Assembly: GCF_049337375.1 (NCBI RefSeq)
Contig: NZ_JBMPIV010000001.1
Origin: Nannocystis pusilla
GTDB taxonomy: Bacteria > Myxococcota_A > Polyangia > Nannocystales > Nannocystaceae
Reading direction: 5' to 3' (one strand)
Length of the DNA stretch: 64,000 bases
The translations under genes were made by a program, and so were the position numbers. The stretch's first letter is position 1. Every line of letters starts with the position of its first letter. Positions 24,682 to 46,788 of the stretch are shown here, in pieces. The notes beneath the pieces were generated by a model, which saw only the letters and a list, made by a program, of their open reading frames with translations, was not told where the DNA came from and ran no database searches.

Positions 24682-26385
24682 TCATTGCGCGAGGAACCAC
24701 GGAGTGGCCACGGCGGAGCGGCACTGCCAGTTGAAGCTGCGCATGTGCGGGACCTCGCCGAGGTCGCCGAAGCCGGCGGCCAGGTCCTCGGCGGTCTGGC
24801 GCAGCTCGGGGTCGGCGGCGCCGTCGTGGTAGTAGGCCATGGCGACGACGTAGGCGCTCTCGCCCCAGTGCTCGTCGTAGTCGTCGACGGCGCCGTTGCC
24901 GTCGCCGACGCCCATCCAGTAGAAGGGCTTGCCGTCGGGGTCGAGGCCGTCGCGGGCGATGACGCGGCCGAGCTTGACGATCGAGGCGCGCGCGGCGTCG
25001 GCCTGGGCGCCGGGCGACTCGGTGGCGTACTGGTCGAGGCCGTCGGCCAGGATGGCGCTGAGCCACGGCGAGCAGCCCCAGAAGCCGAACTCCTCGTCGG
25101 CGGCGACGTCGGTGTGGGCGAAGCAGCGGGCGTCGGGATCGTCGTAGCCGGGCGGGTAGCTGGCCTGCACGTCGAGGTAGGCGGTGACCGCCGCGTCGGC
25201 GAGGTCGCGGAACTGCTGGGCCTGATCGTCGGAGACGTTCATCGCCCACACGTAGGCGAGCAGGCCGAAGCCGGCGTGGCGCTCGGTCCAGAAGCTGGCG
25301 CCGCCCTCGTAGACGGGGTCCCACAGGTCGGCGTAGGCCTCGGCGACGTCCTCGGCGCTCTCGCGGAAGCGGTCGTCGCCGGTCATGAGGTAATGCAGGG
25401 CCATGTTCTGCGTATAATAGTACTTGGCGTCGCCGGTCTTGCCGGGTACGCCGATGGCGGTGTCGGGGCCCTGACCGCTGAGGCCGTCGCGGTAGATGGT
25501 GGTCTCGAGGTAGGCGGAGCGCAGGGTCGAGAGGTCGCCGCGGCGGGCGTGGCCGCGCCAGTGGGTGGTGCCGCGATCGTACAGCCAGACGTCGGCGGAG
25601 TCGTTGGCGCCGAGGAAGGCCTCGACGTTCCATTCGTCGTAGTCGCACTTGTCGGACCAGGCCTGCCCGGGCGTGCCCTCGGCGGCGGCGGCGGTGCCGA
25701 GCGGACCGGCGAACCCGCTGGTCGTGAGCCACTCGGCCGGCAGCAAGGCCCACACGTTCGGGCCGGTGTCGACGAGGGTGTCGGCGACCGGGACGAGGTT
25801 GACCTCGCCGGCGGCAGGGGCGGCATTGAGGGCGACGTCGAGGTCGGTCTCGCCGTCGATCGCCAGGTCGAGCTGGATCTGGACGCTACGCCAGCTGCCG
25901 TCGGGGTGGCGCGCGAGGCCGCGGAGCGCGGTGGCCAGCTCGGTGCCGGCGTGGTGGACCTGGACCTGGGTGTCGTCGGTGAGGACGCCGGGCGCCAGGG
26001 GGACCGCGAAGTTGATCCGCTGCTCGCCGGTGACGCCCTCTTGTGGGATCAGGTGGACGACGACGTTGACGGTCTGGCCGCCGGTGGTGGTGTCGCCGGT
26101 CTCGGTCTCGTCGGTGGTGGTGGTGCCGTCCGTCGTGGTGACAGGCCCGTCGGTAGGATCCGGGGTCGGGCCGTCGGTGGCGTCCGGAGGCTCGCTCGTG
26201 GTCGAGGAGGTCGGCGCTGGATCGTCGGTGGCGACCCCGGTGGGCGCCCCGGTGGTCGGGCCCGAATCGGTGGTCGGGTCGGTGCCGGCGGCCGTGTCGG
26301 TGGTGTCGCCGGAATCGCCGGGACAGGCCGCACAGAGGCACGCGGCGGCGAGTATCCCCATTGATGGCAGTCGAATCACTGGCAT
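24682..26385 (-). CDS. Hypothetical secreted lipoprotein with a Thr/Pro-rich linker and a large globular domain, possibly polysaccharide-active
   Basis: MPVIRLPSMGILAAACLCAACPGD is a signal peptide. The protein is 567 aa, with a roughly 100-aa T/P/D-rich linker. Confidence 0.55.
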   Translation of the reverse strand: MPVIRLPSMGILAAACLCAACPGDSGDTTDTAAGTDPTTDSGPTTGAPTGVATDDPAPTSSTTSEPPDATDGPTPDPTDGPVTTTDGTTTTDETETGDTTTGGQTVNVVVHLIPQEGVTGEQRINFAVPLAPGVLTDDTQVQVHHAGTELATALRGLARHPDGSWRSVQIQLDLAIDGETDLDVALNAAPAAGEVNLVPVADTLVDTGPNVWALLPAEWLTTSGFAGPLGTAAAAEGTPGQAWSDKCDYDEWNVEAFLGANDSADVWLYDRGTTHWRGHARRGDLSTLRSAYLETTIYRDGLSGQGPDTAIGVPGKTGDAKYYYTQNMALHYLMTGDDRFRESAEDVAEAYADLWDPVYEGGASFWTERHAGFGLLAYVWAMNVSDDQAQQFRDLADAAVTAYLDVQASYPPGYDDPDARCFAHTDVAADEEFGFWGCSPWLSAILADGLDQYATESPGAQADAARASIVKLGRVIARDGLDPDGKPFYWMGVGDGNGAVDDYDEHWGESAYVVAMAYYHDGAADPELRQTAEDLAAGFGDLGEVPHMRSFNWQCRSAVATPWFLAQ

Positions 26386-26717
26386 GATTTAATCTCCGCG
26401 CGGGCACCGTAGCCGATCACGCGGCGAGGCGCGCGGGGCCATAAGCCCCCGGCGCGGATGTGCGCGGCGCCTGCGTGCGCGGACGATCGCCGCGGCGAAT
26501 CACAGCGGATGGCCGGGCTGAGGGCGGGGATGTGGACCACGAGGGTGCGCGGGGCCGAGGCGCGCGCTGGCGAAGCCGGGAGCCGTCGTCGGCAGCACGC
26601 GGGCGGTCGGCGCCGGAACTCGCCGAGGTCGTCCTCGACGGGGGAGCGAGCGGCGGCATCGGTCTTGGATGCCGTTTCCCGGGCGGTGGCTCGGGCGAGC
26701 GGACTGGGAGGCGCGCG

Positions 26718-30141: not shown

Positions 30142-30400
30142 ATGGCGTCAGGGGGCACGAGGATGCGGCCGCGCTGCTGGACGGCGAGCTGCTGGCGACG
30201 CGGGAGGAATGGCGTCAGGGGCACGAGGATGCGGCCGCGCTGCTGGACGGCGGGCTGCCGGCGACGCGGGAGGATGGCGTCAGGGGCACGAGGATGCGGC
30301 CGCGCTGCTGCTGGACGGCGGGCTGCCGGCGACGCGGGAGGAATGGCGTCAGCGGGCCGGGCCGCGCACAAGGACGCGGCCGCGCGGGGGCTCGGCGCCG
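30142..30400. repeat. GC-rich tandem minisatellite, about 3.5 copies of a roughly 63-66 bp unit
   Basis: Read directly: ATGGCGTCAGGGGCACGAGGATGCGGCCGCGCTGCTGGACGGCGGGCTGCCGGCGACGCGGGAGGA is repeated head-to-tail. The last partial copy overlaps the 3' end of nei. Confidence 0.75.
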
Positions 30401-31188
30401 GCTCCTACTTGCTGGCAGCGCGGGCAATAATAGGTGGTGCGGCCGAGGGTGCCCTGGCGGCGCATGGCGATCGGGGTGCTGCAGCGCGGGCACAGCTCGC
30501 CGGAGCGGTTGTAGACCCAGGTGTCGGCGCGGCCGACGTCCCACCGGGTCTTGCGCGGGCCGGCGCCGACGAGGTTGCGGCGCAGCCACTTGCGGCCGGC
30601 TGCGAGCAATCGCAGGAGCGTCGAATCGTCGTAGTCGCCGACCGGCTTGAACGGGTCGAGGCGCTCCATGAAGAGCAGCTCGCTCTTGTAGACGTTGCCG
30701 AGGCCGGCGACGAGGCGCTGATCGAGGATGGCCTCGCCGAGCGGCCGCCGCGGGTCGACGCGCAGGCGCTTCAGGGCCTCGGCGATGGGCTGGTCCGATT
30801 CGTCGGGGCCGAGCAGGTCGGGGCCGAGGGCGGAGAGGACGGGGTGATGCTCGATCTCCCAGGCGCTGAGCCACTCGACGGTGGGGGCGTAAAAGCAGAC
30901 CGCGAGCCACGATTCGGTGGCGATCACCGCGCGGGCGGCGGTGGCGGGTTTGCGCCACGCGCTGTTCGGCTGATACAGGTGCCAGCTGCCCTCCATGCGC
31001 AAATGGGTGTAGAGCGCGTGGGTGCCGTCGAACCAGATCAGGAGGTTCTTGCCGCGGGCCTCGACCGCGGTGATCGTGCGACCGACGAGGACGAGCTCGG
31101 GGATCACCGATTCGAACCGGGTGACGGCCTGGCCGACCATCACCTGCAGGCGGGCGGCGACTTTGTGGAGGGTGTCGCCCTCGGGCAT
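30349..31188 (-). CDS. nei: Fpg/Nei family DNA glycosylase (endonuclease VIII-like, Nei2-type)
   Basis: The N-terminus is MPEGDT (catalytic Pro2/Glu3). The C-terminal zinc finger is CPRC...CPRC. It is immediately downstream of lhr. Confidence 0.85.
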   Translation of the reverse strand: MPEGDTLHKVAARLQVMVGQAVTRFESVIPELVLVGRTITAVEARGKNLLIWFDGTHALYTHLRMEGSWHLYQPNSAWRKPATAARAVIATESWLAVCFYAPTVEWLSAWEIEHHPVLSALGPDLLGPDESDQPIAEALKRLRVDPRRPLGEAILDQRLVAGLGNVYKSELLFMERLDPFKPVGDYDDSTLLRLLAAGRKWLRRNLVGAGPRKTRWDVGRADTWVYNRSGELCPRCSTPIAMRRQGTLGRTTYYCPRCQQVGAGAEPPRGRVLVRGPAR

Positions 31189-31191
31189 GGA

Positions 31192-34100
31192 TCAGCGCCT
31201 CCTCGCGCCGAGGCGCGGCTCGTCGCGGCGCAGGATCAGGCCGTCGTGGGTCGGGCGGAAGCCGGCGGCGGTCAAGGCTGCGACCTGCGGCCAGGCGGGG
31301 GCCGGTTGATTGTCGATCTGCTCGAGCAGGACGTAGCGCTGGCCGGTGACCTCGGGCAGCAGCGCGAGGGCCTCGGCGAGCGCCGCGGTGGCGCGGCCGC
31401 GCTCGGGCTCGGCGTCGGGGAGGTGGGTGACGAGGGAGCGAGCGCCGCGGCTCAGGAAGCCGATGAGCCGGCCGTCGCGCAGGACCACGCGCGCGCCGGC
31501 GGCGCGTTCGAACCTGGCCTCGGGGACATCCGGCCACGGCAGCGCGGCGCCGTACGGGTTGGCGGGATCGGTGGCGGCGAGCAGGACCGTGAAGGGCGCG
31601 TCCTCGTCGATGTCCCGGACGTCGCGCAGGCGATCCTCGGCGCCGGGCAGGGCGAACTGGGTCGCGCCCAGGCCGGCGACGAAGTAGCCGCGGCGCACCC
31701 GGCCGGCCTCCTCCATGGCCTTGAGGACAGGATAGACGGCCGCGAAGCCGCCGTCGTGATCCTCGGCGGCGACCGCCTCGCGGGTGAGGACGCCGTGGCG
31801 CGCGAGCAGCTGGCGGGCGCGCGCGGCCCGGCGCTCGGTCTCGTCGACGGGGCGCGGAGTGACGAGCGACCAGCGACCTTCGCTGCCCGGCGGGCCGCTG
31901 CGCCGGCCGCGGCCGTCGACGCCGAAGCGCAGCTGCGGACGCGGGGCTCGATCGCCGCCGGCGAGGCGGCTGCGCAGACAGGTGAGGGTGTCGTTGGTGA
32001 CCTCGCCGGCCCACACGAGGTCCCACAGGGCCTCGAGCAGCTCGTCGACCGGGGCGCGCACCTGGGTGACGAGCTCGGCGAAGAAGGAGGCGCCGCGGGC
32101 CTGCAGGGCCTCGCGCACGCGCGCCGCGAGCTCGCCCGCGGCCGGGGTGGGATCGGGGGTGAGCCAGGCGGCGTCGTCGGCGAGGTAGAGCGCGACGTAG
32201 CCGTCGGCCTGGCCGAGCGGCCGGACGCCGCGCCAGACGACGTCGCCGGCGCCGCACAAGACGTCGAGATCGGTGGCGCGATAGTTGGCGACCCGCGCCG
32301 GCAAGACCTCGCCCTCGAGCACGGAGGCGGGGATCGCAACTCCTTGCAATTGCTCGATCGCCTGCAGCACCGCCTCGGGGCCCTCGCGCTCGCCGCCGAC
32401 GCCCTGCCACGCGAGCGAGAAGCGGCCGAGCACCGCCTGCTCGACCGGCTCGACCTCCTCGCGCAGGCGCGCCAGCGACATGCGCTTGAGCCGGCGCAGG
32501 ACCTCGTCGTCGCACCACTCGAGGCCCGCGCCGCGGGGGATGAACTCGCCCTCGACGACCTTGCCGCGGGCGGCGAGCCGGCGCAGGGCGCCGATGACGA
32601 GCGCGGTGCCGACGGCGAAGCGCTGGGCCAACCACTCGGCGCGGAACGGGCCGTGCGTGCGCGCGTGGCGGGCGACGAGGTCGGCCAGCGGATCTTCCAC
32701 GGACTCGAGGAACACCGCCGGGAGGCCGGGCGGCGAGACGACGCCGAGGGCGTCGCGGTAGCGGCCGGCGTCCTCGGCGGCGATGTAGCGCCAGCGACCG
32801 CCGAGCTTGACCTTGACGATCCGGCGGGTATGCGTGAGCTCGGCCAGCCAGCGATCGATGTCGTCTTCGGGGACGCCGGCGCGGGCGACGAGGTCGTCGC
32901 GGTCCTGATCGCCGAGGGCGAGCAGGAGGTCGTGGATCTCGTCGGGATGGTTCAGCTTGCGAGCGCGTCGCTGCAGGGTCGCCTCGAGCTCGGCGATCGC
33001 GTCGGCGTCGAGCAGGTCGCGCAGGGCGGCCTCGCCGAGCAGCGCCTTGAGGCGCGCGTGGTCGATCGTCAGGGCCTGGGCGCGCCGCTCGGCCAGCGGG
33101 GCGTCGCCCTCGTACATGAAGTTGCCGACGTAGGAGAACAGCAGGGCCGCGGCGAACGGGCTCGGGCTGCGCGTCTCGACGTCGACGACCTTGATCGCGC
33201 GCTGCTCGACGCGACGCAGCAGGTCGACGCAGCCGGGCAGGTCGAACACGTCCTTCAGGCACTCGCGGTAGGTCTCGAGCACGACCGGGAAGTCGCGGAA
33301 GCGCGAGGCGGCGGCCAGCAGGTCGGCCGACTTGCGCCGCATGGCCCACAGCGGGGTGCGCTGGCCGGGCCTTCGCTTGACCAGCAGCAGCGCCCGGCCG
33401 GCGTTCTCGCGGAAGCGGGTGGCGAACAGCGAGGTCTCGGCGAGGCGCGCGACCACGCGATCCTCGAGCTCGTCGGCGCGCGGGAAGAACTGCGTCGGGT
33501 CGGGCGCGCGCTCGGCCTCGGGCAAGCGGAACACGATGCCGTCGTCGGACCAGACGACGTCGAGCTCGGCGGCGTAGCGCTCGAGCAGGGCGCTGCGCAC
33601 CGCCATGGCCCACGGGGCGTGCACGGCGGCGCCGAACGGCGAGAGGATGCAGACGCGCCAGTCGCCGATCTCGTCGCGGAAGCGCTCGACGACGATCGTG
33701 CGATCGGTCGGCAAGGTCTTGGCCGCCTCCTGCTCCTCGCGCACGTACTGCAGGAGGCTATGGGCCGCGGCCGGATCGAGGCAGTGCTGCTGGACGAGGC
33801 GCGCCTCGGCGTCGGCGTCGGACAGCGCTCCGAGCTCGCGGATCAGGGCGCCGATCGCCTGGCCGAACTCGAGCGGGCGCCCGGGGCCGTCGCCGCGCCA
33901 GAACGGCAGCTTGCCGGGCTCGCCCGGGGCCGGCGAGACGAGCACGCGGTCGTGGGTGATCTCTTCGATGCGCCACGACGAGGCGCCGAGCACGAACACG
34001 TCGCCGATCCGCGACTCGAACACCATCTCCTCGTCGAGCTCGCCGACGCGGCGGCCGCCCTCGCCGCTGCCGGCGAGGAAGACGCCGAACAGGCCGCGGT

Positions 34101-35700
34101 CGGGGATGCTGCCGGCGTTGCCGATCGCCACCCGACGCGCGCCGTGGCGCGCCGACAGCTGGCCGGTGACGCGGTCGTAGTTGACGCGCGGGCGCAGGTC
34201 GGCGAAGTCCTCGCTCGGGTAGCGGCCGCTCAGCATGTCGAGCACGCCCTCGAAGGCGTCGCGCGGCAGCTCGGCGTACGGGGCGGCGGCCCGCAGCTTG
34301 TCGTACAGCGCCTCGGCGCCCCAGTCGTCCATCGCCACCGCGGCGACGACCTGCTGGGCGAGGATGTCGAGCGGGTTGCGAGGGTAACGCGACGACTCGA
34401 CCTCGCCGGCGAGCATGGCCCGCGCCGCGGCGGCGCACGGCAGCAGGTCGCCGCGGAACTTGGGGATGATGACGCCGCGCGAGCGCCCGCCGACGTGGTG
34501 ATTGGCCCGACCGACGCGCTGCATGCCGGCGGCGATCGACGGCGGCGAGGCCAGCTGGATCACGAGGTCGACCGCGCCCATGTCGATGCCGAGCTCGAGC
34601 GAGGAGGTGGCGACGATCGCCGGCAAGGTGCCGCGCTTGAGCTGCTCCTCGACGCCGGCGCGCACGTCCTTGGCCATCGAGCCGTGGTGCGCGAGCGCCA
34701 GCGGCTCGCCCGCGGCCTCGTTGAGCGCCGCAGCGAGCCGCTCGGCGAGGCGGCGGCTGTTGACGAACAGCATGGTCGAGCGGTGGGCGCGGATCAGCTC
34801 GACGAGGCGCGGGTGCAGGGCGGTGAGGTTGGAGCGCGGGAGCCCCGAGATCGCGGTGGGCCCCTCGTTCGCGGCCGGCGGGACGTCCTCGATGCTCGCG
34901 CCGGGCTCCTCGACGGGCAGCTCGATCCGCAGGTCGAGCTGCTTGACCTGGCCGGCGTCGACGATCGTCACCGGCCGGGGCGCGACCGCGTCGCCTTCGA
35001 CGACCGAACCGCCGAGGAAGCGCGCCACTTCGGTGAGCGGGCGCTGGGTCGCGGACAGGCCGATCCGCTGCAGCGGCCGCGCGCCGGCGCGGAGCCACTC
35101 GAGGCGCTCGAGCGAGAGCGCGAGGTGGCTGCCGCGCTTGCTGGCGACGAGGCTGTGGATCTCGTCGACGATCACGGTGTCGACCGATCGCAGCATCGCC
35201 CGCGATTCGCTGGTGAGCAGCATGTACAGCGATTCGGGCGTGGTGATGAGAATGTCGGGCGGGTGGCGCTGCATGTGCGCCCGCGCCTTTTGCGGGGTGT
35301 CGCCGCTGCGGATCGCCACGGTCGGCGTGTGGACGGTCATGCCGAGCCGGTCCGCGGTGGCGGCGATGCCGGCCAGCGGCGAGCGCAGGTTCTGCTCGAC
35401 GTCGACCCCGAGGGCCTTGATCGGCGAGACGTAGACCACGCGGCAGCGCTCCGCCGGCGGCGGCACCGGCGCGAACATGACGCGGTTGATGGCGCCGAGG
35501 AACGCCGCCAGCGTCTTGCCCGAGCCCGTGGGCGCCAGCAGCAGCGTCGATTCGCCGGCCTCGATCGCCGGCCAGCCTGCTACCTGCGCCGAGGTCGGCG
35601 CGTCGAAGCAGGCCTCGAACCACGCGCGGGCGGCCGGGTGGAGGAATCCGAGCGGATCGCCGGTCACGCCTGAAGATGGCCGAGATGGCTGCACATGCAA
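31192..35700 (-). CDS. lhr: Lhr-type large ATP-dependent helicase (superfamily 2, DEAH)
   Basis: LLLAPTGSGKT (Walker A), VIVDEIHSL (DEIH), SAT-like motifs, about 1500 aa. The lhr-nei arrangement is as in mycobacteria. Confidence 0.85.
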   Translation of the reverse strand: MHVQPSRPSSGVTGDPLGFLHPAARAWFEACFDAPTSAQVAGWPAIEAGESTLLLAPTGSGKTLAAFLGAINRVMFAPVPPPAERCRVVYVSPIKALGVDVEQNLRSPLAGIAATADRLGMTVHTPTVAIRSGDTPQKARAHMQRHPPDILITTPESLYMLLTSESRAMLRSVDTVIVDEIHSLVASKRGSHLALSLERLEWLRAGARPLQRIGLSATQRPLTEVARFLGGSVVEGDAVAPRPVTIVDAGQVKQLDLRIELPVEEPGASIEDVPPAANEGPTAISGLPRSNLTALHPRLVELIRAHRSTMLFVNSRRLAERLAAALNEAAGEPLALAHHGSMAKDVRAGVEEQLKRGTLPAIVATSSLELGIDMGAVDLVIQLASPPSIAAGMQRVGRANHHVGGRSRGVIIPKFRGDLLPCAAAARAMLAGEVESSRYPRNPLDILAQQVVAAVAMDDWGAEALYDKLRAAAPYAELPRDAFEGVLDMLSGRYPSEDFADLRPRVNYDRVTGQLSARHGARRVAIGNAGSIPDRGLFGVFLAGSGEGGRRVGELDEEMVFESRIGDVFVLGASSWRIEEITHDRVLVSPAPGEPGKLPFWRGDGPGRPLEFGQAIGALIRELGALSDADAEARLVQQHCLDPAAAHSLLQYVREEQEAAKTLPTDRTIVVERFRDEIGDWRVCILSPFGAAVHAPWAMAVRSALLERYAAELDVVWSDDGIVFRLPEAERAPDPTQFFPRADELEDRVVARLAETSLFATRFRENAGRALLLVKRRPGQRTPLWAMRRKSADLLAAASRFRDFPVVLETYRECLKDVFDLPGCVDLLRRVEQRAIKVVDVETRSPSPFAAALLFSYVGNFMYEGDAPLAERRAQALTIDHARLKALLGEAALRDLLDADAIAELEATLQRRARKLNHPDEIHDLLLALGDQDRDDLVARAGVPEDDIDRWLAELTHTRRIVKVKLGGRWRYIAAEDAGRYRDALGVVSPPGLPAVFLESVEDPLADLVARHARTHGPFRAEWLAQRFAVGTALVIGALRRLAARGKVVEGEFIPRGAGLEWCDDEVLRRLKRMSLARLREEVEPVEQAVLGRFSLAWQGVGGEREGPEAVLQAIEQLQGVAIPASVLEGEVLPARVANYRATDLDVLCGAGDVVWRGVRPLGQADGYVALYLADDAAWLTPDPTPAAGELAARVREALQARGASFFAELVTQVRAPVDELLEALWDLVWAGEVTNDTLTCLRSRLAGGDRAPRPQLRFGVDGRGRRSGPPGSEGRWSLVTPRPVDETERRAARARQLLARHGVLTREAVAAEDHDGGFAAVYPVLKAMEEAGRVRRGYFVAGLGATQFALPGAEDRLRDVRDIDEDAPFTVLLAATDPANPYGAALPWPDVPEARFERAAGARVVLRDGRLIGFLSRGARSLVTHLPDAEPERGRATAALAEALALLPEVTGQRYVLLEQIDNQPAPAWPQVAALTAAGFRPTHDGLILRRDEPRLGARRR

Positions 35701-35829
35701 GCAGCGCCGCCAGCGAGCCCAGCCGTGAATGTCATGAGCGACGGGCCGCGCGGCGGGGAGGCCGAGCGCGCGCGGGCCGTCGTGATCCTCACTCGCGCGG
35801 CGCGGCGATCCAGCGCACGCGCGGCGAGC

Positions 35830-36978
35830 TTACGTCTTGCGGCCGGTCTTGTAGCGCGGGTTGCTGTCGTGCCACTCGAACGCGCCGCCCATCCAGGCCC
35901 GCAGGGCGCGCAGGAACCGCTGCAGCTCGACGCTGGGGACGGCCTGCAGCTCGCGGTGGCTGGCCTCGAAGTCGCGGACGAGGTCGTTGTGCAGCTGGAC
36001 GGTGACCTCGGTCGCCTCGTCGATCGAGCAGCCGCGATCGGCCTTGACCTGCAGGACCATGTTGCACGGCGGCTTCGCGTCCTCGAGGTCCTTGGCCACC
36101 GAATAGAGGTCGTTGACGAGGACGACCGCGGTGCCGGCCAGGAACGCGGCGCGGCGGATCCGCGCGTCGTAGAAGAGCTCGGCGGGCAGGCGGTAGCCGC
36201 CGATGACGTCGCACAGCGTCATCGAGGTGTAAAAGCTGTCGTGCTGGCGCGCGGCCAGGTACTTCCACGCGGGCGGGTACTCGCCGGTGTGCCGCCACGC
36301 CGCGTAGGCGCTCCACGACACGAACATGGCGAAGGTCGCGTAGCAGGTGCGCTGGACCTGCTCGTGCGTGGCGTAGCGGCCCATGTGCTCGAGGCCCGAG
36401 CGCAGGGCGACGAGCACGCGCTCGGCGTCGATCGCCTGCTCGAGCGGGACGCTGAACTCGCCGGCGCGCGGCAGCGGATCCATGGCCGCCATCGCCAGGA
36501 CGAGGCGCGGCGGCAGCTGCTCAGGGACCGCCCCGAGGGCGCTGTCGTCGGCGTAGTAGTCGTCGGCGGCCCACCACGCGGCGTTCATCTTGGCGCCGAT
36601 GAGCAGCCGATCCGGGTCGTCGCAATCGGCGTGGGTGAGCATCACCAGGCGGCCGAACCGGGTCTTGCGGATCTTGACGATCTCGTCGTCGTCGAAGCCG
36701 CACTCGCTCGCCCAGGCCGCGAGCCGATCGTCGACCTCGTCGGCCAGCGGCTCGTTGATGCGCTCGGTGATGGGGCAGTACAGCGGCGACGCGCTGCCGT
36801 CGCCCCACGACCGCCAGGCGTAGGCGGGATCGATCGCCGGCTGCGGCGGGTCGAGGTCGCCGGCGCGGGCCCGATTGAGCAGCTGCGCGAGGCGAGCGGC
36901 GTGCGTCCCCAGGCCGGTCGGTCCGGCGAGGAGGGCGGATACATCGTTCGGGTCCGTCTTGCGCTTGGCCTCAGTCAT
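35830..36978 (-). CDS. Type I terpene synthase, probably 2-methylisoborneol synthase (the cargo enzyme)
   Basis: DDYYADD is a DDxxD-type motif (compare DDCYCED in 2-MIBS). NDLYSVAKDLE is the NSE/DTE motif (compare NDLYSYTKE in 2-MIBS). The protein is 382 aa with a roughly 55-aa Pro-rich, disordered N-terminus. The adjacent GPP C-methyltransferase supports the MIB assignment. Confidence 0.8.
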   Translation of the reverse strand: MTEAKRKTDPNDVSALLAGPTGLGTHAARLAQLLNRARAGDLDPPQPAIDPAYAWRSWGDGSASPLYCPITERINEPLADEVDDRLAAWASECGFDDDEIVKIRKTRFGRLVMLTHADCDDPDRLLIGAKMNAAWWAADDYYADDSALGAVPEQLPPRLVLAMAAMDPLPRAGEFSVPLEQAIDAERVLVALRSGLEHMGRYATHEQVQRTCYATFAMFVSWSAYAAWRHTGEYPPAWKYLAARQHDSFYTSMTLCDVIGGYRLPAELFYDARIRRAAFLAGTAVVLVNDLYSVAKDLEDAKPPCNMVLQVKADRGCSIDEATEVTVQLHNDLVRDFEASHRELQAVPSVELQRFLRALRAWMGGAFEWHDSNPRYKTGRKT

Positions 36979-37069
36979 CGCTCGCCTCTGTTGCAGCGGC
37001 CGCCGAGATCCGGCGGAAAATTACGCAGGGCGGGAGGTATGATCATACCTCCCGCCGATGCCGTCATTC

Positions 37070-37936
37070 TCAGCGGACGATGCGGTCCGCGACGATGAGG
37101 AGGTAGTGGAAGCTGCCCTCCTTGTAGGCCCGCAGGAACGGATCCTCGACGCCGGTGGCCACCGAGCAGCGGGTCCGCAGCTCCCAGTACGGGATCGTGT
37201 CGGGGGTCAGGTCGGTGACCTCGATCGGCACGAGGTTGTTGGCCGCCATCGCCTTGAAGTACTCGCTGCGCGGGTGGATGTTGCAGATGTACTTGGCGTC
37301 GATCTCGCTGACCGCGCGCGAGCGGCCGCCGGTGATGTCGTTGTAGCAGCCGGTGATGCAGACGTAGCGCCCGCCGTCCTTCAGCAGCCGCGAGAACTCC
37401 GCGTACAGCTTGAACAGGTCGACGTACATCGTGGTCTCGTTGGTCCAGATGGCGTCGATCGAGCCGGTCTCGAAGCCGGTGTCGAGCATGTTGCGGAAGT
37501 GGTACTTCAGCTTGTCGGTGTAGCCGCGCTTGGCGGCCTGCTCGTTGGCGAAGCCGACCTGGTACTCCGAGATCGACACGCCGTCGACCTGGCACTTGAA
37601 TTTCTCGTGGGCCATGAGGCTGGTGCCGCCGCGGCCGGAGCCGGCGTCGAGCAGGCGGCTCTCGGGCTTGATCGGGCCGAGCTTCTTGAGCAGGTGCTCC
37701 GCCTGCGCGTGCTCGAGCCGGTGGAGCTCGCGGATGATCGCGTCGTCGCGCGTGGCCTCGGGCTGCTCCAGCACCGACCAATTGACGGCGCCGATCCCGT
37801 AGTGGTGGTGGTAGTAGCCGTCGACGTGGCCGAGCAGCAGATTGACGGGGTCGTTCTGGTTGGTGTTCCAGTAGTTGGCGACCGACTTCTGGTATTCGCT
37901 GCGCAGGACGCTATTGGCCGTGGTGGGCGTGTTCAT
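37070..37936 (-). CDS. Geranyl diphosphate 2-C-methyltransferase (SAM-dependent)
   Basis: The SAM motif LDAGSGRGGTS is present, the protein is 288 aa, and it sits immediately upstream of the terpene synthase in the canonical cnb-mtf-mibs arrangement. Confidence 0.8.
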   Translation of the reverse strand: MNTPTTANSVLRSEYQKSVANYWNTNQNDPVNLLLGHVDGYYHHHYGIGAVNWSVLEQPEATRDDAIIRELHRLEHAQAEHLLKKLGPIKPESRLLDAGSGRGGTSLMAHEKFKCQVDGVSISEYQVGFANEQAAKRGYTDKLKYHFRNMLDTGFETGSIDAIWTNETTMYVDLFKLYAEFSRLLKDGGRYVCITGCYNDITGGRSRAVSEIDAKYICNIHPRSEYFKAMAANNLVPIEVTDLTPDTIPYWELRTRCSVATGVEDPFLRAYKEGSFHYLLIVADRIVR

Positions 37937-38005
37937 GATCGTTGGTTCTCTTTCGTTGCACTGTGACGAGGCGCCCCAAGGTGGCGCCTGCCTCGGCGGG
38001 GGCGC

Positions 38006-39409
38006 TCAGCGCCCGATCTCGATGTTCTCCAGGATCCCGAGCGCGTCCGGGATCAGGACCGCTGCGGAGTAATACGTGCTGACGAGGTACGAGGCGACGG
38101 CTCGCTCGTTGGTGCCCATCCTGCGGACGGACAGGCCGGGCTCGCGCTCGTCGGGGAGGCCGCTGCGATACAGGCCGATGACGCCCTGGGCCTCCTGGCC
38201 GACGCGCATGGCGAGGATCGAGCTGGTCTGGGTGTCGGAGATCGGAATCTTGTCGCACGGCAGGATCGGCACGCCGCGCCAGCCGGCGACGATGGACCCC
38301 TCGTATTCGACGTTCGGCGGATCGAGCCGGCGGCGGGTGCACTCGCGGCGGAAGGCGGCGATCGTCCGCGGGTGGGCCAGGAAGAACCGGGTCTTGCGGC
38401 GCCGGCACAGCAGCTCGTCCATGTCGTCGGGCGTCGGCGGGCCGCTGCGGGTGCTGATCCGCTGCTTGTAGTCGGCGTTGTGCAGGAGGCCGAAGTCGCG
38501 GTTGTTGACGAGCTCGTGCTCCTGCCGCTCGCGCAGGGCGTCGATGGTCAGGCGCAGCTGCTCCTCGAGCTGGTCCATCGGGTCGTTGAACAGGTCCGAC
38601 ACCCGTGAATGGAGCTGCAGGATGGTCTGCGCGAGGCTCAACTCGTACTCGCGCGGCGAGGCCTCGTAGTCGACGAAGGTGCCCGGCAAGGTGACCTCGC
38701 CGTGGTGGCCCGCGGTCAAGCGGATGGCGGCCTGGCCGTGCTTGTCCTGCGGGGTCTTCAGCAGCTCCTTGTAGCGCTCGACGTGGGCGCGCAGCGCGGC
38801 CGAGCGGCCGATCAGCTCCTCGAACACGGCCTGGGGCAGGGCGAGGACGATGCACGGGGTGATCGCCTTGACGCTGTAGTCCCAGGCGTCGTCGTCCTGC
38901 ACGAGGGCCTGATCGCCGAAGTGCGCGCCGTCGGCGAGCACCTCGAGCCTGGCCTCCTCGCCGTAGGGGCCCTGGCCCAGCTTGTCGGCCTTGCCGTGGA
39001 CCAGCAAGTACACGTGGTCGGCCGGCTTGCCGCGCTCGGCGATGAGCTGGCCCGGCTTGAACTCGCTCTGCACGAACCGGCTGGCCAGGTGCGAGAGCAC
39101 CTCGTCGTCGGCAAATCCGCGCAGGAGCGGCAGCTCGCCGAGCTCGGCCGGGATCACCTGAGCTTTGGCGCCGATGTTGGTAAATTCGATCCGCCCGTCC
39201 CCGACCGCGACGCTCATGCGGCGATTGACGCGGAACGTGCCACCGGTGACGTCGACCCAGGGCAGCGAGCGGAGCAGCCAGCGAGGCGTGCGCCCCTGGT
39301 TCTGCGGCGGCGTCTTGGTGGTGGTCGCCAGCTGCCGCGCGGCCCGGGTCCCGAGGCTCATCGGCTGCTGCCCGTCGTCGTCACGGCCGGACTTCTCGAA
39401 AATCGACAT
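38006..39409 (-). CDS. Cyclic-nucleotide-binding-domain protein of the Family 2B encapsulin shell type ('cnb'), paralog 1
   Basis: 467 aa. The N-terminal half contains a cNMP-binding-like domain ([15 protein letters not shown]...). The C-terminal half is homologous to the upstream paralog, with long identical blocks such as TFVDYE.SPRE.ELS.AQT.LQ.H.RV.DLFNDPM and [13 protein letters not shown]. It lies in an operon with the GPPMT and terpene synthase genes. Confidence 0.7.
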
Positions 39410-39488
39410 GTCATCGTCTCCAGGCTGGCATCACGGACGGAGGCGCCCCGGGCCGCGAGGACCGGAGCGCCCATGGTGCGACGAGGCG

Positions 39489-40886
39489 TCAGTCGGCGCG
39501 GCCGATCTCGACGCTCTCGAGGATGCCGAGCGCGTCCGGGATCTGGACGGCGGCCGAGTAATAGAGGCTGACCAGGTACGAGATGATCGCCTTCTCGTTG
39601 ATGCCCATGAAGCGCACCGACAGGCTCGGCTCGATCTCGTCGGGGATGCCCTTGTGGTGCAGGCCGATGACGCCCTGGTTCTTCTCGCCGACGCGCATCA
39701 GCAGGATCGAGGTGGTGCGCGTGTCGGAGATCGGGATCTTGTTGCAGGGGAAGATCGGGACGCCGCGCCACGACGGGACGTGATGGCCGCCCAGGTCGAT
39801 CGGCGTCGGGTAGATGCCCGCGCGGTTGCACTCGTGGCCGAACGCCGCGATGGTCCGCGGGTGGGCGAGGAAGAAGGCCGGCTCCTTCCACACCAGCGCC
39901 AGCAGGTTGTCCATGTCGTCCGGCGTCGGCGGGCCGCTGCGGGTGTGGATCCGCTGCTTCAGGTCGGCGTTGTGAAGCAGGCCGAACTCGTGGTTGTTGA
40001 TGAGCTCGTGCTCCTGGCGCTCCTTCAGCGCCTCGACGGTCAGGCGCAGCTGCTCCTGCGTCTGGTTCATCGGGTCGTTGAACAGGTCGGCCACGCGCGT
40101 GTGGACCTGCAGGACGGTCTGGGCGACGCTGAGCTCGAACTCCCGCGGCGAGGTCTCGTAGTCGACGAAGGTGCCGGGCAGCACGGGCTCGCCCGAGTGG
40201 CCGGAGGCGACCTCGATCGCGGCCTGGCCGCTGTTGTCCTGCTTCTTCTGCGAGCGCGCCTTGAACTCGTCGACGTGCTTGCGCAGCGACGGGTGCTGGG
40301 CGACGAGCTCCTCGAAGGACGCCTGCGACAGCGTCAGGACGGTGCCGGCGGTCACCGCCTTGGCGGTGAAGTCCCAGTAGTCCTGCGACTCGAGGATCGC
40401 CTGGTACGAGTAATGGTCACCGTCGGCCAGGGTCTCGAGGACGCTCTCGTCGCCGTACTTGCCGGTGCCGATCTTGTTGACCTTGCCGTGGGCGATGAGG
40501 ACCATCTCGTTGGCCTCGTTGCCCTTCTGCGTCAGGACGTCGCCCGCCTTGAACTCCTTCTGCACGAATCGACCGGCGAGGACGTTCAGCACCTCGAGGT
40601 CCTCGTAGCCGCGGAACAGCGGCAGCTCGGTCAGCTCCAGCGGCACGACCTGGATCTTGGCGCCGGTGTTGTAGAAGGTGACGCGGCCGTCGCCGACGGC
40701 GTAGCTCAGGCGACGATTGAGGCGGAAGACGCCGTTGACGTGCACCCAGGGCAACAATTTGAGCAGCCAGCGGGACGAGATTCCCTGCATCTGCGGCGGG
40801 GACTTCGTCGTCGTGGCGAGCTGGCGCGCTGCAGCCGTCGAGAGGCTGGTCTGCTGATCATTTCCCGGCTTTCCTGCGATCGACAT
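39489..40886 (-). CDS. Cyclic-nucleotide-binding-domain protein of the Family 2B encapsulin shell type ('cnb'), paralog 2
   Basis: The start was re-set to MSIAGKPG (ATG at 40886) by alignment with the paralog's N-terminus MSIFEKSG...[15 protein letters not shown]. The protein is 465 aa with a cNMP-binding-like region ([18 protein letters not shown]). Confidence 0.7.
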
Positions 40887-41900
40887 GACTATCCTTTTCA
40901 CGGGCAGCTCTGCTGCCGTTTCCAAATTCTGCTCGACGGAGGGCCGTGTCGGCGAAAATCGGCCCTTCGCGGTTCGAGCTCGCGGGCGGAGGTTACGCTC
41001 CGTGATCGCGAGGCGTCAAGACAATTTCGGGGAACGAAGATTAATTAAACGATGCATTCGTGGCTGTGGAATGCGCGACCCAGCGCGCGGAGGGCCAGGA
41101 GAACCGCGCTGCGCCGGGTCGCGCGATTCGAAGCGAGTCCCGCACTGCCATGCAGGAAATGATGCGTGTTCTATTCGCGACCCGGTGCTGCGATGTAACC
41201 CGGAGTGCGCAGAGGGCAAGAGGAGCGGCGGAAAGTGGCGATTCCGATCGGCGACTGATTCGCAGCGCCGGTGAAATGCACATGGTCGGCGGCGCCGCGG
41301 GAGAGTTCGGAAAAGGCGTGACGGCGGTCTGCGGCGATTCCCGCGCCGCGCAAACCCGCACGCGGCCCGCGGGCAGGCAATGGCCATTATCGTCGCGCGG
41401 CAATGCACCGTCCGTGGAATGCGACGGCGCGGGCCCGCGCTGTCGCATCGCTGCGCAACGCCGCGCCAGGGCGCGTGAGCACCGGCAGTACGCTGTTCCC
41501 GCGGCGGTCGCGATCTCCTTTATTAAGGTCGCGGGCAGGTGCGACGAGACGCGGGCGCGGGCGAGCCGGGCGCGGGTCCGCAAGTCGGCCGGAGGGCCGG
41601 GTGCGCATTTGCGAGGCCGACGCGACGGGCGCCCCGCCGATGGGCCCGCGGGCCGGGCGCGTGGTCGAGGGCCGCTGCGGCGCGGCGAGTGCGGGCGCAC
41701 GGACCCGGAGGGCGAGGTCGACAGGCTATCATTGCAATCGGGCAAGGGCCGCCGACCTCGACCGCGAGGCCCCATTGGCAATGGGCGGATCGCGGCCGGC
41801 GAGGAATGCGTCATCGCTGCGATGGGGGCGCGGCGCGAGGCCGATTGCGGGGAGCGGCCGAACGCCGCACGGTACGGCGTTCGGCAGGAAGGACGGGCGA
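40887..41900. other. About 1 kb non-coding leader/promoter region upstream of the encapsulin-MIB operon, with lower GC, short direct repeats and palindromes
   Basis: Only Arg-rich spurious ORFs are found here. Features: an AT-rich core (aagattaattaaacgatgcattcg), GGAATGCG x3, the palindrome CCATTGgCAATGG, and a terminator-like hairpin GCCGAACGCCGcacggtaCGGCGTTCGGC at 41858-41887, just downstream of the gene ending at 41901. Confidence 0.35.
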
Positions 41901-43562
41901 TCAGCGGACCATCAGCCAGCGGGCGGCGCCGGGCTTGTGACAGTCGTGGACGGGGTTGACCGCGTCGAGGGTGTTGGGGTCGGTGGCGAAGGTGTCGGCG
42001 GAGGGGCTGACGACCGCGGCGCCCTTCCACGGGTAGTTGACGAGGCCGCAGCCGTACTGGTTCTGGGCGACCTCGTCGATGTGCCAGGCGCCGGCGCAGC
42101 CCTCGGAGGTGCCGACGTGCCAGGTGCAGATGGTCTTGTTCTGCACGAAGTTGCCCTTGAGGCGGGCCTCCTTGTAGAGCACCTGCGACCAATTGAAGCA
42201 GCTGTTCGGTCCGCCTTGACCGTTGAACAGGTTGCCGGCAGCGGTCAGCAGGTAGTCCTCGCCGCGGCAGTCGATGCGCATGTCGGTCGAGAGGTCGCGC
42301 AGGGCGGTCATCTGCGCCTTGGACAGGCGATGGCGGGCGTTGGCAGGGTCGGCGGCGTTGACGGGGAGGTCGTTGTAGAGCGCCTTGCCGATGGTCTGGG
42401 CGCCGAGCGGGCTGCGCTCGAGCAGGGTCCAGCCGCCGCCGGCGGTGACCATGTCGCAGAAGACGGAGTAGCCGGCCTGGCCACCGACGCCGTCGGGATC
42501 GACGACGTAGACGCCGCTCGGGAGCATCGGGACGACCGCTTGCAGGTCCTCGCAGGTGGTGGGGACGGTGCAGGCGCTGCTGCAGCCGTCGCCGTCGATG
42601 TCGTTGCCGTCGTCGCACTGCTCGACGCCGGTGTGGATGACGCCGTCGCCGCAGGTGGCGGCCTTGCAATCGGCGAGGCAGGCGTCATTGTCGTCGGCGT
42701 CGGCGTCGTCGCATTCCTCGACGCCGGCCTGCACCTCGCCGTCGCCGCAAATGGCGGCCTTGCAATCGGCGAGGCAGGCGTCGCTGTCGTCGGCGTTGCC
42801 GTCGTCGCACTGCTCGACGCCGTCCTGGACGTGGCCGTCGCCGCAGCTGGCGGTATGGCAGGTGGAGAGGCAAGCGTCGCCGTCGTCGGGGTTGCCGTCG
42901 TCGCACTGTTCGACGCCGGCCTGGACGTGGCCGTCGCCGCAACTGGCCGCGAGACAGGTGGAGAGGCATGCGTCGGTGTCGTCGGCGTCGGCGTCGTCGC
43001 AGGCCTCGCCGTTCTGGACCGCTCCGTCGCCGCAGGTGGCGAGGGCGCAGGTGTTGCTGCAAGCGTCGTCGTCGACGTCGTTGGCGTCGTCGCAGGCCTC
43101 GACTCCGGCGTGGACGAGGCCGTCGCCGCACACGGCCTCGGCGCAAGCGAGGGTGCAGTTGCCGTCGTCGGCGTTGCCCGGGCCGTCGTCGCAGGCCTCG
43201 CCGTCGTCGACCTCGCCGTCGCCGCAGAAGGGGGCGGGGCCGGTGCTGGTGGCGTCGGTGGTGGTGGTGGTGTCGCCGTCGGTCGTGGTGGTGGTGGTGT
43301 CGCCGTCGGTCGTGGTGGTGGTGGTGGTGGTGTCGCCGTCGGTCGCCACGGTCGCGCTGTCGGTGCCGACCGTCGAGGTGCCGCTCGTGGTCGGCGCGCC
43401 GGTGGTCGGCGCCGGTTCGCTCGTGCTGTCACCGCTGCTCGTCGCCTGCGTCTCCATGCCGGTCGCGTCCGTCTCGCTGGCCGCGACGCCGCTGTCCCCA
43501 CACGCCGCCGCGGCCATCGCCGCCGCGAATGCACCCCTGCTCGCCCATACACACAGTTTCAT
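41901..43562 (-). CDS. Lipoprotein with a Thr-rich linker, 8 tandem 'Myxococcus cysteine-rich repeats' (TIGR02232-like, CGDGxVxxGEECDDGN) and a C-terminal fibrinogen-related domain
   Basis: The start is [28 protein letters not shown] at 43562. Repeats such as [24 protein letters not shown] occur 8 times. The C-terminus has [17 protein letters not shown], a fibrinogen C-domain motif. Confidence 0.7.
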
Positions 43563-43741
43563 GGCGGCATGGTACGCGAGCGGATCGCCGGCGGGCGAGC
43601 GTCGGGGATCGCAGAGGCCGGCGGCCCCGACGCGGCGGCGAGTCGATCCACGTGGTGCATGCGGCTGCACGGTGACGTCGCGGCGGTGTGGGCCGCGCGA
43701 CCACTCGCGAGGGCGCGCGCGGGGGCGACGCGGCGCGGAAT

Positions 43742-45590: not shown

Positions 45591-46529
45591 TCAGCCGGGG
45601 ACGATGAAGCAATTGATGCTGGTGTCGATGCGGAAGTTCGACTGCGTGGTGTGACGCTCGGCGTGGAAGATGTCCATCGAGTAGGTGCCGTTCAGCTGGA
45701 TGCCGAAGTAGCCGGCGTTGCTGTCGATGTCGATGGTCTCGCTGAGGGCGCCGTGGACGCCGCCGAGGTCGATGGCGAGCTTGCCGTTGATGAACAGCCA
45801 CAGATCGTCGTCACCGGTGAAGGTGAAGACCTCGCCGCCCGAATAGGTGAACTCGGTGTGGATCTCGGTGGTGAAGTGGAAATTGTGGTTGTTGCCCTGG
45901 TTGCCCCAGCCCTGATCGTCGATCGGGAAGAAGTCGTTGTTCTGGTAGGTGTATTGCCCGGGCGACACCTCGGTCAGCATGATCTCGATCTCGAACGATT
46001 GATTGACGTCGGCGATGTCGTTGTACCACTGGGCGAACTCCGCGGGGCCGGTGGTGACCGAGGTGCCGCCGGCGTGGGCGTAGACCGGCTTCTTGTCGGG
46101 GCCGAGGTCGGCCTGGACGATGCCGTCGACGGTGCCGCCGAAGCTCTCGAAGTCGGGGTGGCTCTCCTTGAAGTCGCGCACGGTGGCCTTGAGCAGGGAG
46201 ACGCACTCCGGCGGCCGCTCGCCGGTGGTGGTGGTGGTGGTCTCCGTGGTGGTGGTCGTCGTCGTGCCGGGCTCGGTGGTGGTGGTGGTGGTCGAGGGAT
46301 CGACGGGGCCGGTGGTGGGCTCGGCGGTGGTGGGCTCGGCGGTGGTCGCCGCGGTGCCCGGCTCGGTGGTGCCGGGGTCGGTGGTGCCGGGGTCGGTGGT
46401 GCCGGGCTCGGTGGTGCCGGCGCTCAGGCTGGTGATGGTGGTCGCGTCGGTGGCAGTGCTGCCTTGCACGGCCCCGGAGTCGCCGCAGGCGGAGGCGGTG
46501 AGGACGAGGGCGGAGAGGGTGAAGCTGTA
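45591..46529 (-). CDS. Fibro-slime domain lipoprotein (PA14-like) with a Thr/Pro-rich linker
   Basis: The start is MRHVFKYSFTLSALVLTASACGDSG, ATG at 46529. The C-terminal domain has GDDDLWLFINGKLAIDLGGVHG, the fibro-slime signature. Confidence 0.7.
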   Translation of the reverse strand, partial: YSFTLSALVLTASACGDSGAVQGSTATDATTITSLSAGTTEPGTTDPGTTDPGTTEPGTAATTAEPTTAEPTTGPVDPSTTTTTTEPGTTTTTTTETTTTTTGERPPECVSLLKATVRDFKESHPDFESFGGTVDGIVQADLGPDKKPVYAHAGGTSVTTGPAEFAQWYNDIADVNQSFEIEIMLTEVSPGQYTYQNNDFFPIDDQGWGNQGNNHNFHFTTEIHTEFTYSGGEVFTFTGDDDLWLFINGKLAIDLGGVHGALSETIDIDSNAGYFGIQLNGTYSMDIFHAERHTTQSNFRIDTSINCFIVPG

Positions 46530-46788
46530 CTTGAAGACATGTCGCATGGGACTCCCGCGCGGGCTGGGCCGGTCTACGTTCTCATACCACGCGAGGCGCC
46601 GCGCGGCGCCCGGGGATGCCCGGGCGGGGCTCGCCCCGGTCGGCCCGAGAGCCACGCGGCGCCCCTAGCGACGCGCGCGGTGTCGGGCCGACCGGTGAGC
46701 CGGAAATCGGGGGGTGACTGCGCCCGGTGCTGCGCGCGCCGGCCCGAAAAAGGGCCTGGGCGCGGCCGTGGGAGGCTTCGGGGCGTGC

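Follow-up and report, generated by a model that had tools for sequence, protein, structure and literature searches.

Do four adjacent genes of the soil-dwelling myxobacterium Nannocystis pusilla, two of which code for paralogous proteins with a cyclic nucleotide-binding (cNMP) fold, together specify a protein shell with a terpene cyclase inside it, and what would that cyclase make? The genes occupy positions 35830–40886 on the minus strand of a 64,000-nt stretch of contig NZ_JBMPIV010000001.1 (assembly GCF_049337375.1), hereafter the window, that is, the whole of the DNA analysed. Our answer is that the cassette is very probably a two-component encapsulin system of family 2B in which two shell proteins (Enc1 and Enc2) would enclose a terpene cyclase (TC) of the 2-methylisoborneol (2-MIB) synthase family, by the mechanism set out below, with a methyltransferase (MT) encoded alongside.

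Four genes of a probable encapsulin cassette

The open reading frames (ORFs) of the region comprise four intact, co-oriented genes arranged head to tail in the order Enc1-Enc2-MT-TC and separated by 79, 69 and 91 bp, in keeping with the gaps of 70–90 bp given in a preliminary description of the locus. Enc1 (39489–40886; 465 aa from its ATG) and Enc2 (38006–39409; 467 aa) are family 2B encapsulin shell proteins, MT (37070–37936; 288 aa) is a geranyl diphosphate 2-C-methyltransferase (GPPMT), and TC (35830–36978; 382 aa) is a class I terpene cyclase of the 2-MIB synthase family and the predicted encapsulin cargo, all on the minus strand. The three NCBIfam models concerned share a curated cut-off of 400 bits, and every protein exceeds it: Enc1 and Enc2 score 753 and 746 bits against NF041163, the encap_f2b equivalog, MT scores 497 bits against NF041943, the GPPMT equivalog, and TC scores 465 bits against NF041167, the model for family 2 encapsulin cargo terpene cyclases. 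The family assignments first made from motifs are thereby borne out, and solved structures agree with them. All four proteins are also 100% identical to RefSeq entries, Enc1 to WP_422883365.1 and Enc2 to WP_422883364.1 (both named 'family 2B encapsulin nanocompartment shell protein'), MT to WP_422883363.1 ('geranyl diphosphate 2-C-methyltransferase') and TC to WP_422883362.1 ('family 2 encapsulin nanocompartment cargo protein terpene cyclase').

Fold and type of the two shell proteins

In both shell proteins a cNMP-fold domain lies N-terminal to an HK97 domain, the trait that separates family 2B from family 2A. The cNMP-fold insertion of Enc1 (~40293–40559, minus strand) and that of Enc2 (~38804–39064, minus strand) match PF00027 (cNMP_binding) with 51 and 64 bits in the two shells against a cut-off of 27.5, and the HK97/SrpI-like domain that follows in Enc1 (~39498–40259, minus strand), like the HK97 domain of Enc2 (~38009–38758, minus strand), matches PF19307 (SrpI-like) over the full 254-position model, with 452 and 442 bits, respectively. 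Overall identity between the two proteins is 62%; their HK97 halves are more alike (71%) than their cNMP-fold regions (52%). Each aligns end to end with shells solved by cryo-electron microscopy (cryo-EM), namely 9bje, 9bix and 9bhu, with E values of 1e-173 to 6e-190; for the two-component shell structures of Streptomyces lydicus the values are ~1e-184 to 1e-190. Enc1 scores 635 bits to 9bje (residues 3–462), 634 to 9bix and 621 to 9bhu, Enc2 616 to 9bix, 592 to 9bhu and 578 to 9bje, and both also align with the 2A shells 6x8m and 8t6r. Because matches of E ~1e-190 are to cryo-EM structures of the same family, we regard the HK97 fold as settled, and the check proposed earlier on the C-terminal halves of these 'cnb' proteins came out in its favour, from PF19307 as from the cryo-EM shells. 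Neither shell protein contains a DNA-binding domain.

A functional reference is EshA of S. griseus (Sg Enc; PDB 9bhu), a family 2B shell that packages 2-MIB synthase (2-MIBS) (Andreas & Giessen 2024, PMC11550324). Enc2 aligns with Sg Enc free of gaps over residues 16–466, including the N-terminal stretch of the cNMP-fold region that corresponds to the metal-binding subdomain of family 2B shells, and residue numbers therefore transfer directly between the two. The external cNMP-fold domain of Sg Enc does not bind cyclic AMP (cAMP) and has Trp176 in place of a phosphate-binding Arg (PMC11550324). The same substitution of Trp for the Arg of Ec CAP (R82) is present at W176 of Enc2 and W171 of Enc1, and it recurs in every shell of the 80 loci that we retrieved and searched by tblastn with the four cassette proteins; the genome scan found 432 relatives. 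With Trp at the site of the phosphate-binding Arg, as in Sg Enc, the cNMP-fold domains of Enc1 and Enc2 probably do not bind cAMP, and the label 'cNMP-binding' would then be a misnomer in function.

Two-component 2B systems have been defined from 503 operons, of which the terpene-cyclase type also occurs in Proteobacteria and Cyanobacteria (Dutcher, Andreas & Giessen 2024, PMC11071501). Their two shell types are told apart by a pair of motifs, TVWK with AVDFHGHSLP in Enc1 and RRRK with GAELHGTDVR in Enc2 (PMC11071501). The N. pusilla shell genes are adjacent, only 79 bp apart, and so lie within 10 kb of one another in the conserved order by which such systems are recognised. At the first diagnostic motif Enc1 has LVWK (aa 331) and Enc2 RRRK (aa 336). 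At the second, in the luminal A-domain loop, the Enc1 sequence (aa 362) resembles AVDFHGHSLP of the S. lydicus Enc1 protein (Sl-Enc1), and the Enc2 sequence (aa 366) differs from that of Enc1 and occupies the position of GAELHGTDVR in Sl-Enc2, which it resembles loosely. For Enc1 the type cannot be told from bit scores alone (635 to 9bje versus 634 to 9bix), and the assignment as Enc1-type rests on the diagnostic motifs together with a neighbour-joining (NJ) tree that carries no bootstrap support. The tree places the Nannocystaceae Enc1 proteins with actinobacterial Enc1 and the Nannocystaceae Enc2 proteins with Enc2 of Amycolatopsis; the cyanobacterial shell pairs form a clade of their own. 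These groupings indicate that the Enc1/Enc2 duplication is older than the spread of the cassette across phyla, as Dutcher et al. proposed. Separately, the first diagnostic motif reads RRRN or RRRD in both shells of the cyanobacterial 2-MIB clusters, and these shells fall outside the Enc1/Enc2 dichotomy. To judge from these sequences, the cyanobacterial pair looks like a separate and more recent duplication.

Methyltransferase, predicted cargo cyclase and likely product

MT aligns over residues 13–286 with the GPPMT crystal structures 4f84 (E 6e-95) and 3vc1 (E 2e-92) and has the S-adenosylmethionine-binding (SAM) motif LDAGSGRGGTS at residue 96. No cargo-loading motif of the form GPxGxGT was found in its sequence, and by analogy with S. 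griseus the enzyme presumably acts outside the shell.

TC matches PF19086 (Terpene_syn_C_2), and its best PDB matches in sequence and in fold are the S. coelicolor 2-MIBS entries 3v1v and 4la6; for its AlphaFold2 model, 4la6 is the top fold match, with a target-normalised template-modelling (TM) score of 0.85. The Asp-rich metal-binding motif DDYYADD (aa 139–145; 36544–36564, minus strand) aligns with DDCYCED of 3v1v, and D139, D140, D144 and D145 are invariant among homologs. The second metal-binding motif, NDLYSVAKD (aa 289–297; 36088–36114, minus strand), aligns with NDLYSYTKE of 3v1v, and here N289, D290, S293, K296 and D297 are invariant, with D297 as the third ligand in an N-S-D triad that is constant throughout the clade. 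The preliminary description had called the cyclase motifs near-identical to those of 2-MIBS: the motifs do align, but the enzyme as a whole is 32% identical to the crystallised S. coelicolor protein and its third ligand is D297 rather than Glu.

How TC might be loaded is suggested by its N-terminus. Loading of 2-MIBS into Sg Enc makes use of an N-terminal disordered domain whose only conserved element is GPxGLGT, or GPxGxGTxxL (PMC11550324). Residues 1 to ~70 of TC (36769–36978, minus strand), which we assign as the cargo-loading domain, are probably disordered: in a model with a mean predicted local distance difference test score (pLDDT) of 74, the seven ten-residue blocks of this stretch average 37, 37, 45, 59, 55, 70 and 57, six of the seven below 60, with a short helix at 23–38 and the cyclase helices starting from residue 76. 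The length and sequence of the N-terminus vary among homologs except around one element, the putative cargo-loading peptide GPTGLGTHAAR (aa 19–29; 36892–36924, minus strand), which is recognised by its conservation and by the published consensus. Its GPTGLGT (aa 19–25) fits the GPxGLGT consensus of 2-MIBS cargo-loading domains (PMC11550324), and G22, L23, G24 and T25 are invariant in 14 homologs. A Pro-rich N-terminus of ~55 aa had been put forward as the loading domain. The motif and the low pLDDT support the role, whereas the description needs amending, as the stretch extends to about residue 70 and is Ala-rich (Ala, Pro and Gly number 11, 6 and 4 among the first 55 residues and make up 38% of them, against 26% of the whole protein).

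The product of the cassette is most likely 2-MIB, on three grounds. NF041167 scores TC alongside the S. coelicolor 2-MIBS (486 bits) and the homolog of Pseudanabaena cinerea FACHB-1277 (475 bits). TC and MT are 72% and 78% identical, respectively, to the homologs of this cyanobacterium, a 2-MIB producer according to the report cited in PMC11352632 (Zhang et al. 2016). Finally, labelling in Nannocystis exedens, as summarised in PMC9273983, demonstrated a path from geranyl diphosphate (GPP) through 2-methyl-GPP to 2-MIB.

The cargo pocket and residue 430 of Enc2

In Sg Enc the interior three-fold axes hold a conserved hydrophobic pocket formed by L264, L285, F430 and Y441 (PMC11550324). The pocket is complete in Enc1 (L259, L280, F426 and Y437). 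Enc2 keeps three of the four residues (L264, L285 and Y441) and has Arg in place of Phe at position 430 (R430; codon at 38120–38122). The change is shared by its lineage: position 430 is R, K or Q in seven of the seven Enc2-bearing Nannocystaceae/Polyangia loci, while Phe is retained at the pocket position throughout the Enc1 proteins, the Amycolatopsis Enc2 proteins and the cyanobacterial shells of the loci compared. This exchange of Phe for R, K or Q, which concerns a single residue, appears to be the sole detail that the present analysis adds to published work. In the Nannocystaceae lineage it could mean that only Enc1 provides a full cargo pocket.

Distribution among relatives

The identities of the four genes, their motifs, the orthology of the Enc1 and Enc2 types and the conservation of the cassette are direct results of the present comparison. 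Among the 80 loci, the complete arrangement Enc1-Enc2-MT-TC is present in 4 Nannocystis genomes (N. pusilla Na p29, N. punicea, N. bainbridge and Nannocystis sp. RBIL2), in 3 metagenome-assembled genomes (MAGs) of Nannocystaceae/Polyangia and at 23 Amycolatopsis loci, whereas the cyanobacterial order is Enc-MT-TC-Enc. The preliminary description had taken the arrangement cnb-cnb-mtf-mibs to be that of actinomycete and cyanobacterial odour clusters alike; that exact order is seen in Amycolatopsis, but cyanobacteria have cnb-mtf-cyclase-cnb. Cyclase and methyltransferase of the cyanobacterial relatives (Microcoleus, Tolypothrix, Scytonema and P. cinerea FACHB-1277) are nonetheless 72–74% and 76–78% identical to those of N. 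pusilla, and an earlier study set the cyanobacterial and Amycolatopsis genes apart as an 'MT-first' group (Wang et al., PMC3072421).

Within the genus itself, the MT of Nannocystis sp. RBIL2 is broken into fragments, and N. radixulma has Enc1 followed only by the cyclase, with neither Enc2 nor MT at the locus. Because of these two cases, the cassette appears to be decaying or to have been remodelled in some congeners, which fits the report of a differently organised 2-MIB cluster in strain NCELM (PMC10435759).

Upstream region and neighbouring genes

About 1 kb upstream of Enc1 (40887–41900) forms an unusually long intergenic stretch with no called gene, and only its proximal ~290 bp are conserved across six Nannocystis species. 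Invariant in the six upstream regions are a candidate −35 hexamer, TTGACG (41014–41019, minus strand), and a block GCGTAACCTCCG that contains a candidate −10 hexamer, TAACCT (40990–40995, minus strand); the 18-nt spacer between the hexamers varies, and the conserved part also holds an AT-rich TTAATTAAT block. From this cross-species conservation we infer that TTGACG-N18-TAACCT is a candidate promoter of the cassette, from which transcription would start near 40983. A consensus scan of 35500–42000 called no sigma-70-type promoter, at this candidate or elsewhere in that interval, and predicted no terminator on the coding (minus) strand over the same interval; two terminator-like sites on the opposite strand are at chance level. 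A ribosome-binding site, AAGGA (40892–40896, minus strand), lies 5 nt before the Enc1 ATG (40886), and the sequence around the start, AAAAGGAT.GTCATG, is invariant in six Nannocystis loci. A TTG start at 40925, which would give an Enc1 of 478 aa, was rejected: it is not conserved, and the conserved ribosome-binding site would fall inside the extension. The RefSeq protein is likewise the 465-aa form.

The whole window contains just two Rfam matches, both to RF02735 (Sernc350), at 40360–40848 (plus strand; 131 bits) and 38868–39370 (plus strand; 98 bits) with a gathering score of 50, and each runs antisense to the 5' half of a shell gene, Enc1 and Enc2, respectively. RF02735 represents a Saccharopolyspora antisense small RNA. 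Its model probably derives from a transcript that lies opposite a homologous cnb/encapsulin gene, in which case the matches would capture coding conservation and would not be evidence of a regulatory RNA.

The composition of the cassette was compared with that of its surroundings. Its GC content is 68–69% against 71–74% in the flanks, and GC at third codon positions (GC3) is 0.94–0.96 in all four genes, the same as in neighbouring genes. Recent horizontal transfer was considered and set aside, as the somewhat lower GC goes with a neighbour-like GC3 and leaves no compositional sign of it.

Downstream, as the preliminary description stated, the cassette is directly followed by lhr-nei, here an Lhr-type helicase (31192–35700, minus strand; Pfam DEAD, Helicase_C, WH_Lhr and DEAD_assoc) and an Fpg/Nei glycosylase (30349–31191, minus strand). 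The helicase gene starts 129 bp downstream of the cyclase on the cassette strand, and its end at 31192 directly abuts the start of the Fpg/Nei frame at 31191, which suggests translational coupling of the two. Both proteins are divergent family members, as they score below their NCBIfam equivalog cut-offs (1318 versus 1496 bits for the helicase and 154 versus 400 for the glycosylase). The adjacency of cassette and lhr-nei is kept in four Nannocystis genomes and was not found outside the genus, in Sorangium, Nannocystaceae MAGs, Amycolatopsis or cyanobacteria. A functional link between them was rejected, and the adjacency, confined to Nannocystis, is therefore treated as synteny.

Further afield, the upstream neighbour (41901–43670, minus strand) codes for a 589-aa protein with myxobacterial cysteine-rich acidic repeats (TIGR02232/DUF4215) and a bacterial fibrinogen-like GGGWT domain (NF040941; weak PF00147); it is kept at three of the four Nannocystis loci with a full cassette and was not detected at the fourth. 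Other genes of the window include an ORF of 568 aa at 24682–26388 (minus strand), which has a gene-like GC3 of 0.94 and no Pfam or NCBIfam match, and one at 45591–46664 (minus strand) for a protein with a fibro-slime domain (TIGR02148, PA14-like).

Proposed mechanism and alternative explanations

By homology to characterised systems, we infer how the cassette might assemble, load its cargo, pass substrate and product through pores and make that product. Enc1 and Enc2 would together build a mixed HK97-fold shell of 60 subunits (T=1) and ~27 nm, whose cNMP-fold domains would face outwards and, given the Trp at the phosphate-Arg position, would probably be incapable of binding cAMP. TC would be tethered inside through its disordered N-terminal domain, its GPTGLGTHAAR peptide docking in the hydrophobic pocket at the interior three-fold axes. 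The 2-methyl-GPP would enter through large two-fold pores, be cyclised to 2-MIB and diffuse out as such. Several observations weigh against this account. Many relatives in the Pseudonocardiaceae carry MT-TC without a shell gene in the vicinity, and encapsulins are missing altogether from 20% of actinobacterial 2-MIB clusters (PMC11550324); the chemistry therefore does not require encapsulation. Arg at position 430 may mean that Enc2 does not bind cargo as modelled. The boundaries of the operon are putative, the consensus scan having yielded neither a promoter nor a coding-strand terminator. Lastly, the assignment of the cyclase leaves some latitude in the product: identity to the S. coelicolor 2-MIBS is low (32% overall), a terpene synthase of S. 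lydicus (4zq8) is nearly as good a match (E 4e-39 versus 3e-41), and enzymes of this family can yield 2-methylenebornane or other C11 products (PMC5908152; PMC9273983).

These last observations are the core of one alternative, that the architecture is as proposed and the main product is a different C11 homomonoterpene, such as 2-methylenebornane or 2-methyl-2-bornene. The same two sources add that 2-methylenebornane synthases share the 2-methyl-GPP substrate with 2-MIB synthases and that both give C11 by-products, and the third metal ligand of TC is Asp, not Glu. Against this, the clade of TC takes in the 72% identical cyclase of Pseudanabaena FACHB-1277, which produces 2-MIB, the genus Nannocystis is itself a known 2-MIB producer, and the MT-first cyanobacterial mic genes, in which the last NSE position departs from Glu as well, come from verified 2-MIB producers (PMC3072421), so that we consider a different main product improbable. 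Far more remote is a functional connection to the downstream lhr-nei genes through read-through transcription. Cassette and lhr-nei lie 129 bp apart on one strand, no terminator is predicted on that strand and four Nannocystis genomes preserve the neighbourhood; however, its absence outside the genus looks like genus-level synteny, and no biochemical connection between the cassette and lhr-nei is known. The least probable reading, to which we give practically no credence, takes the cnb proteins not as shells but as cyclic-nucleotide-responsive transcription regulators of mtf and the cyclase, after the older EshA/Crp-Fnr view. It can appeal to the Pfam cNMP_binding match in both proteins and to labels such as 'CRP-like cAMP-binding protein' (JGI) and 'Crp/Fnr family transcriptional regulator' (PDB molecule names). 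Yet the proteins have no DNA-binding domain, their C-terminal 250 residues are the SrpI-like HK97 shell domain, homologs have been solved as 60-mer shells, and Trp stands in place of the phosphate-binding Arg as it does in Sg Enc, a shell that fails to bind cAMP (PMC11550324). For this family of proteins the regulator view has effectively been refuted already.

A further possibility refines the two-component encapsulin reading and does not replace it. Enc1 might both self-assemble and bind cargo, and Enc2, having lost its pocket function, might mainly tune the cargo load or gate the two-fold pores. The R, K or Q in all seven Nannocystaceae/Polyangia Enc2 proteins, with Phe elsewhere, points in this direction, as do the findings that one of the two shell proteins forms shells alone in both Myxococcus xanthus (where it is Enc1) and S. 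lydicus, and that M. xanthus shells had closed pores only when mixed. On the other side, the argument turns on one of the four pocket residues, the loading domain reportedly binds in a heterogeneous manner and without strict sequence specificity (PMC11550324), and a three-fold pocket is built by three protomers, so that mixed pockets may still bind. We hold this division of labour to be a tentative idea, the less probable side of the question. Its stricter form, in which assembly starts from Enc1, which also retains the 2-MIB synthase, and Enc2 loads no cargo, strikes us as unlikely. If true, the Enc1:Enc2 ratio would set the amount of packaged enzyme, and possibly the closure of the two-fold pores, and the Nannocystaceae would offer the first sequence-level rationale for the retention of two shell genes by two-component encapsulins.

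Significance

The preliminary description had regarded a two-shell myxobacterial version of the cassette as uncharacterised. That view has to be given up: RefSeq already names the genes, and the pertinent systems are published: encapsulated 2-MIBS (2024, PMC11550324), two-component 2B shells from S. lydicus (2024, PMC11071501) and from a myxobacterium (2026, bioRxiv 10.64898/2026.07.21.739788), and a functional study of a cyanobacterial 2-MIB cluster with two cnb genes (2025, PMC12159092). The N. pusilla cassette is a textbook member of a recently and thoroughly described class; its novelty is low, and it raises no new question. The interest of the locus lies in its compactness, as an example of a myxobacterial pathway with a short single-motif loading domain and both shell types, and its practical value is that of a handy test case for the roles of Enc2 and of external domains that appear not to bind cAMP. 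Drinking-water supply and aquaculture have a major taste-and-odour problem in the musty compound 2-MIB, and for recirculating aquaculture systems Nannocystis has been named as a potential source (PMC12442409).

Comparison with known systems

The S. griseus system is the reference for cargo loading. Shared with N. pusilla are a 2B shell with an external cNMP fold bearing Trp for Arg, the hydrophobic residues of the three-fold pocket, complete in Enc1 and three of four in Enc2, a cargo of the 2-MIBS family with an N-terminal disordered GPxGLGT domain, and a co-encoded GPPMT that lacks a loading domain. S. griseus differs in having a single shell gene, in a listed order of shell, 2-MIBS and MT, where N. 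pusilla has two shells in the order Enc1-Enc2-MT-TC, and the loading domain there spans ~120 residues, compared with ~70 residues and one motif here. With respect to Streptomyces enzymes more generally, the cyclase domain of N. pusilla is ~31% identical to that of S. coelicolor and has NSD in place of NSE. S. lydicus provides the structural precedent for two shells, Sl-Enc1 (9bje) and Sl-Enc2 (9bix): its genes are likewise adjacent in the order Enc1-Enc2, its proteins display both diagnostic motifs, and the N. pusilla cassette falls in the terpene cyclase-type operon class defined in that study (PMC11071501). Unlike Enc2 of N. pusilla with its Arg, Sl-Enc2 retains the pocket Phe (lsvrFmg), and the S. 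lydicus shells were studied without cargo.

Within the myxobacteria, the two-component MxEnc1/MxEnc2 shell of M. xanthus packages GeoA, and a minimal GPTGLGTS sequence gave cargo-peptide density at the three-fold pocket of the shell in vitro (Fazal et al. 2026, bioRxiv 10.64898/2026.07.21.739788). The parallels are close: both systems are myxobacterial, combine two 2B shells that are ~62–63% identical to one another with a terpene cyclase cargo, and have nearly identical loading peptides, GPN/TGLGTSAAR in M. xanthus and GPTGLGTHAAR in N. pusilla. The cargo of M. xanthus is, however, a geosmin synthase of two domains that has two loading peptides, one internal and the other C-terminal, and the shell genes lie downstream of the cargo gene; in N. 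pusilla a single-domain C11 cyclase with a lone N-terminal peptide is the predicted cargo, and an MT is co-encoded.

The closest relatives outside the myxobacteria are the cyanobacterial cnbA-mtf-mtc(mic)-cnbB clusters, which also have two shells and an MT before the cyclase (PMC3072421; PMC12159092). Their product has been verified as 2-MIB, and the cnb proteins have been connected with compartments inside the cell and with the retention of 2-MIB (Wang et al. 2011, PMC3072421; Dayarathne et al. 2025, PMC12159092). There the shells flank MT-TC, whereas those of N. pusilla precede it, and the cyanobacterial shells, 81% identical to one another, both with RRRN at the first motif and together in one NJ clade, contrast with the distinct Enc1 and Enc2 of N. 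pusilla. The Amycolatopsis clusters present the same four-gene order and the same Enc1 and Enc2 types, with cyclases 64–67%, MTs 70–73% and shells 61–66% identical to those of N. pusilla. Their hosts are of another phylum, and Enc2 in these clusters retains the pocket Phe that Enc2 of N. pusilla has exchanged for Arg.

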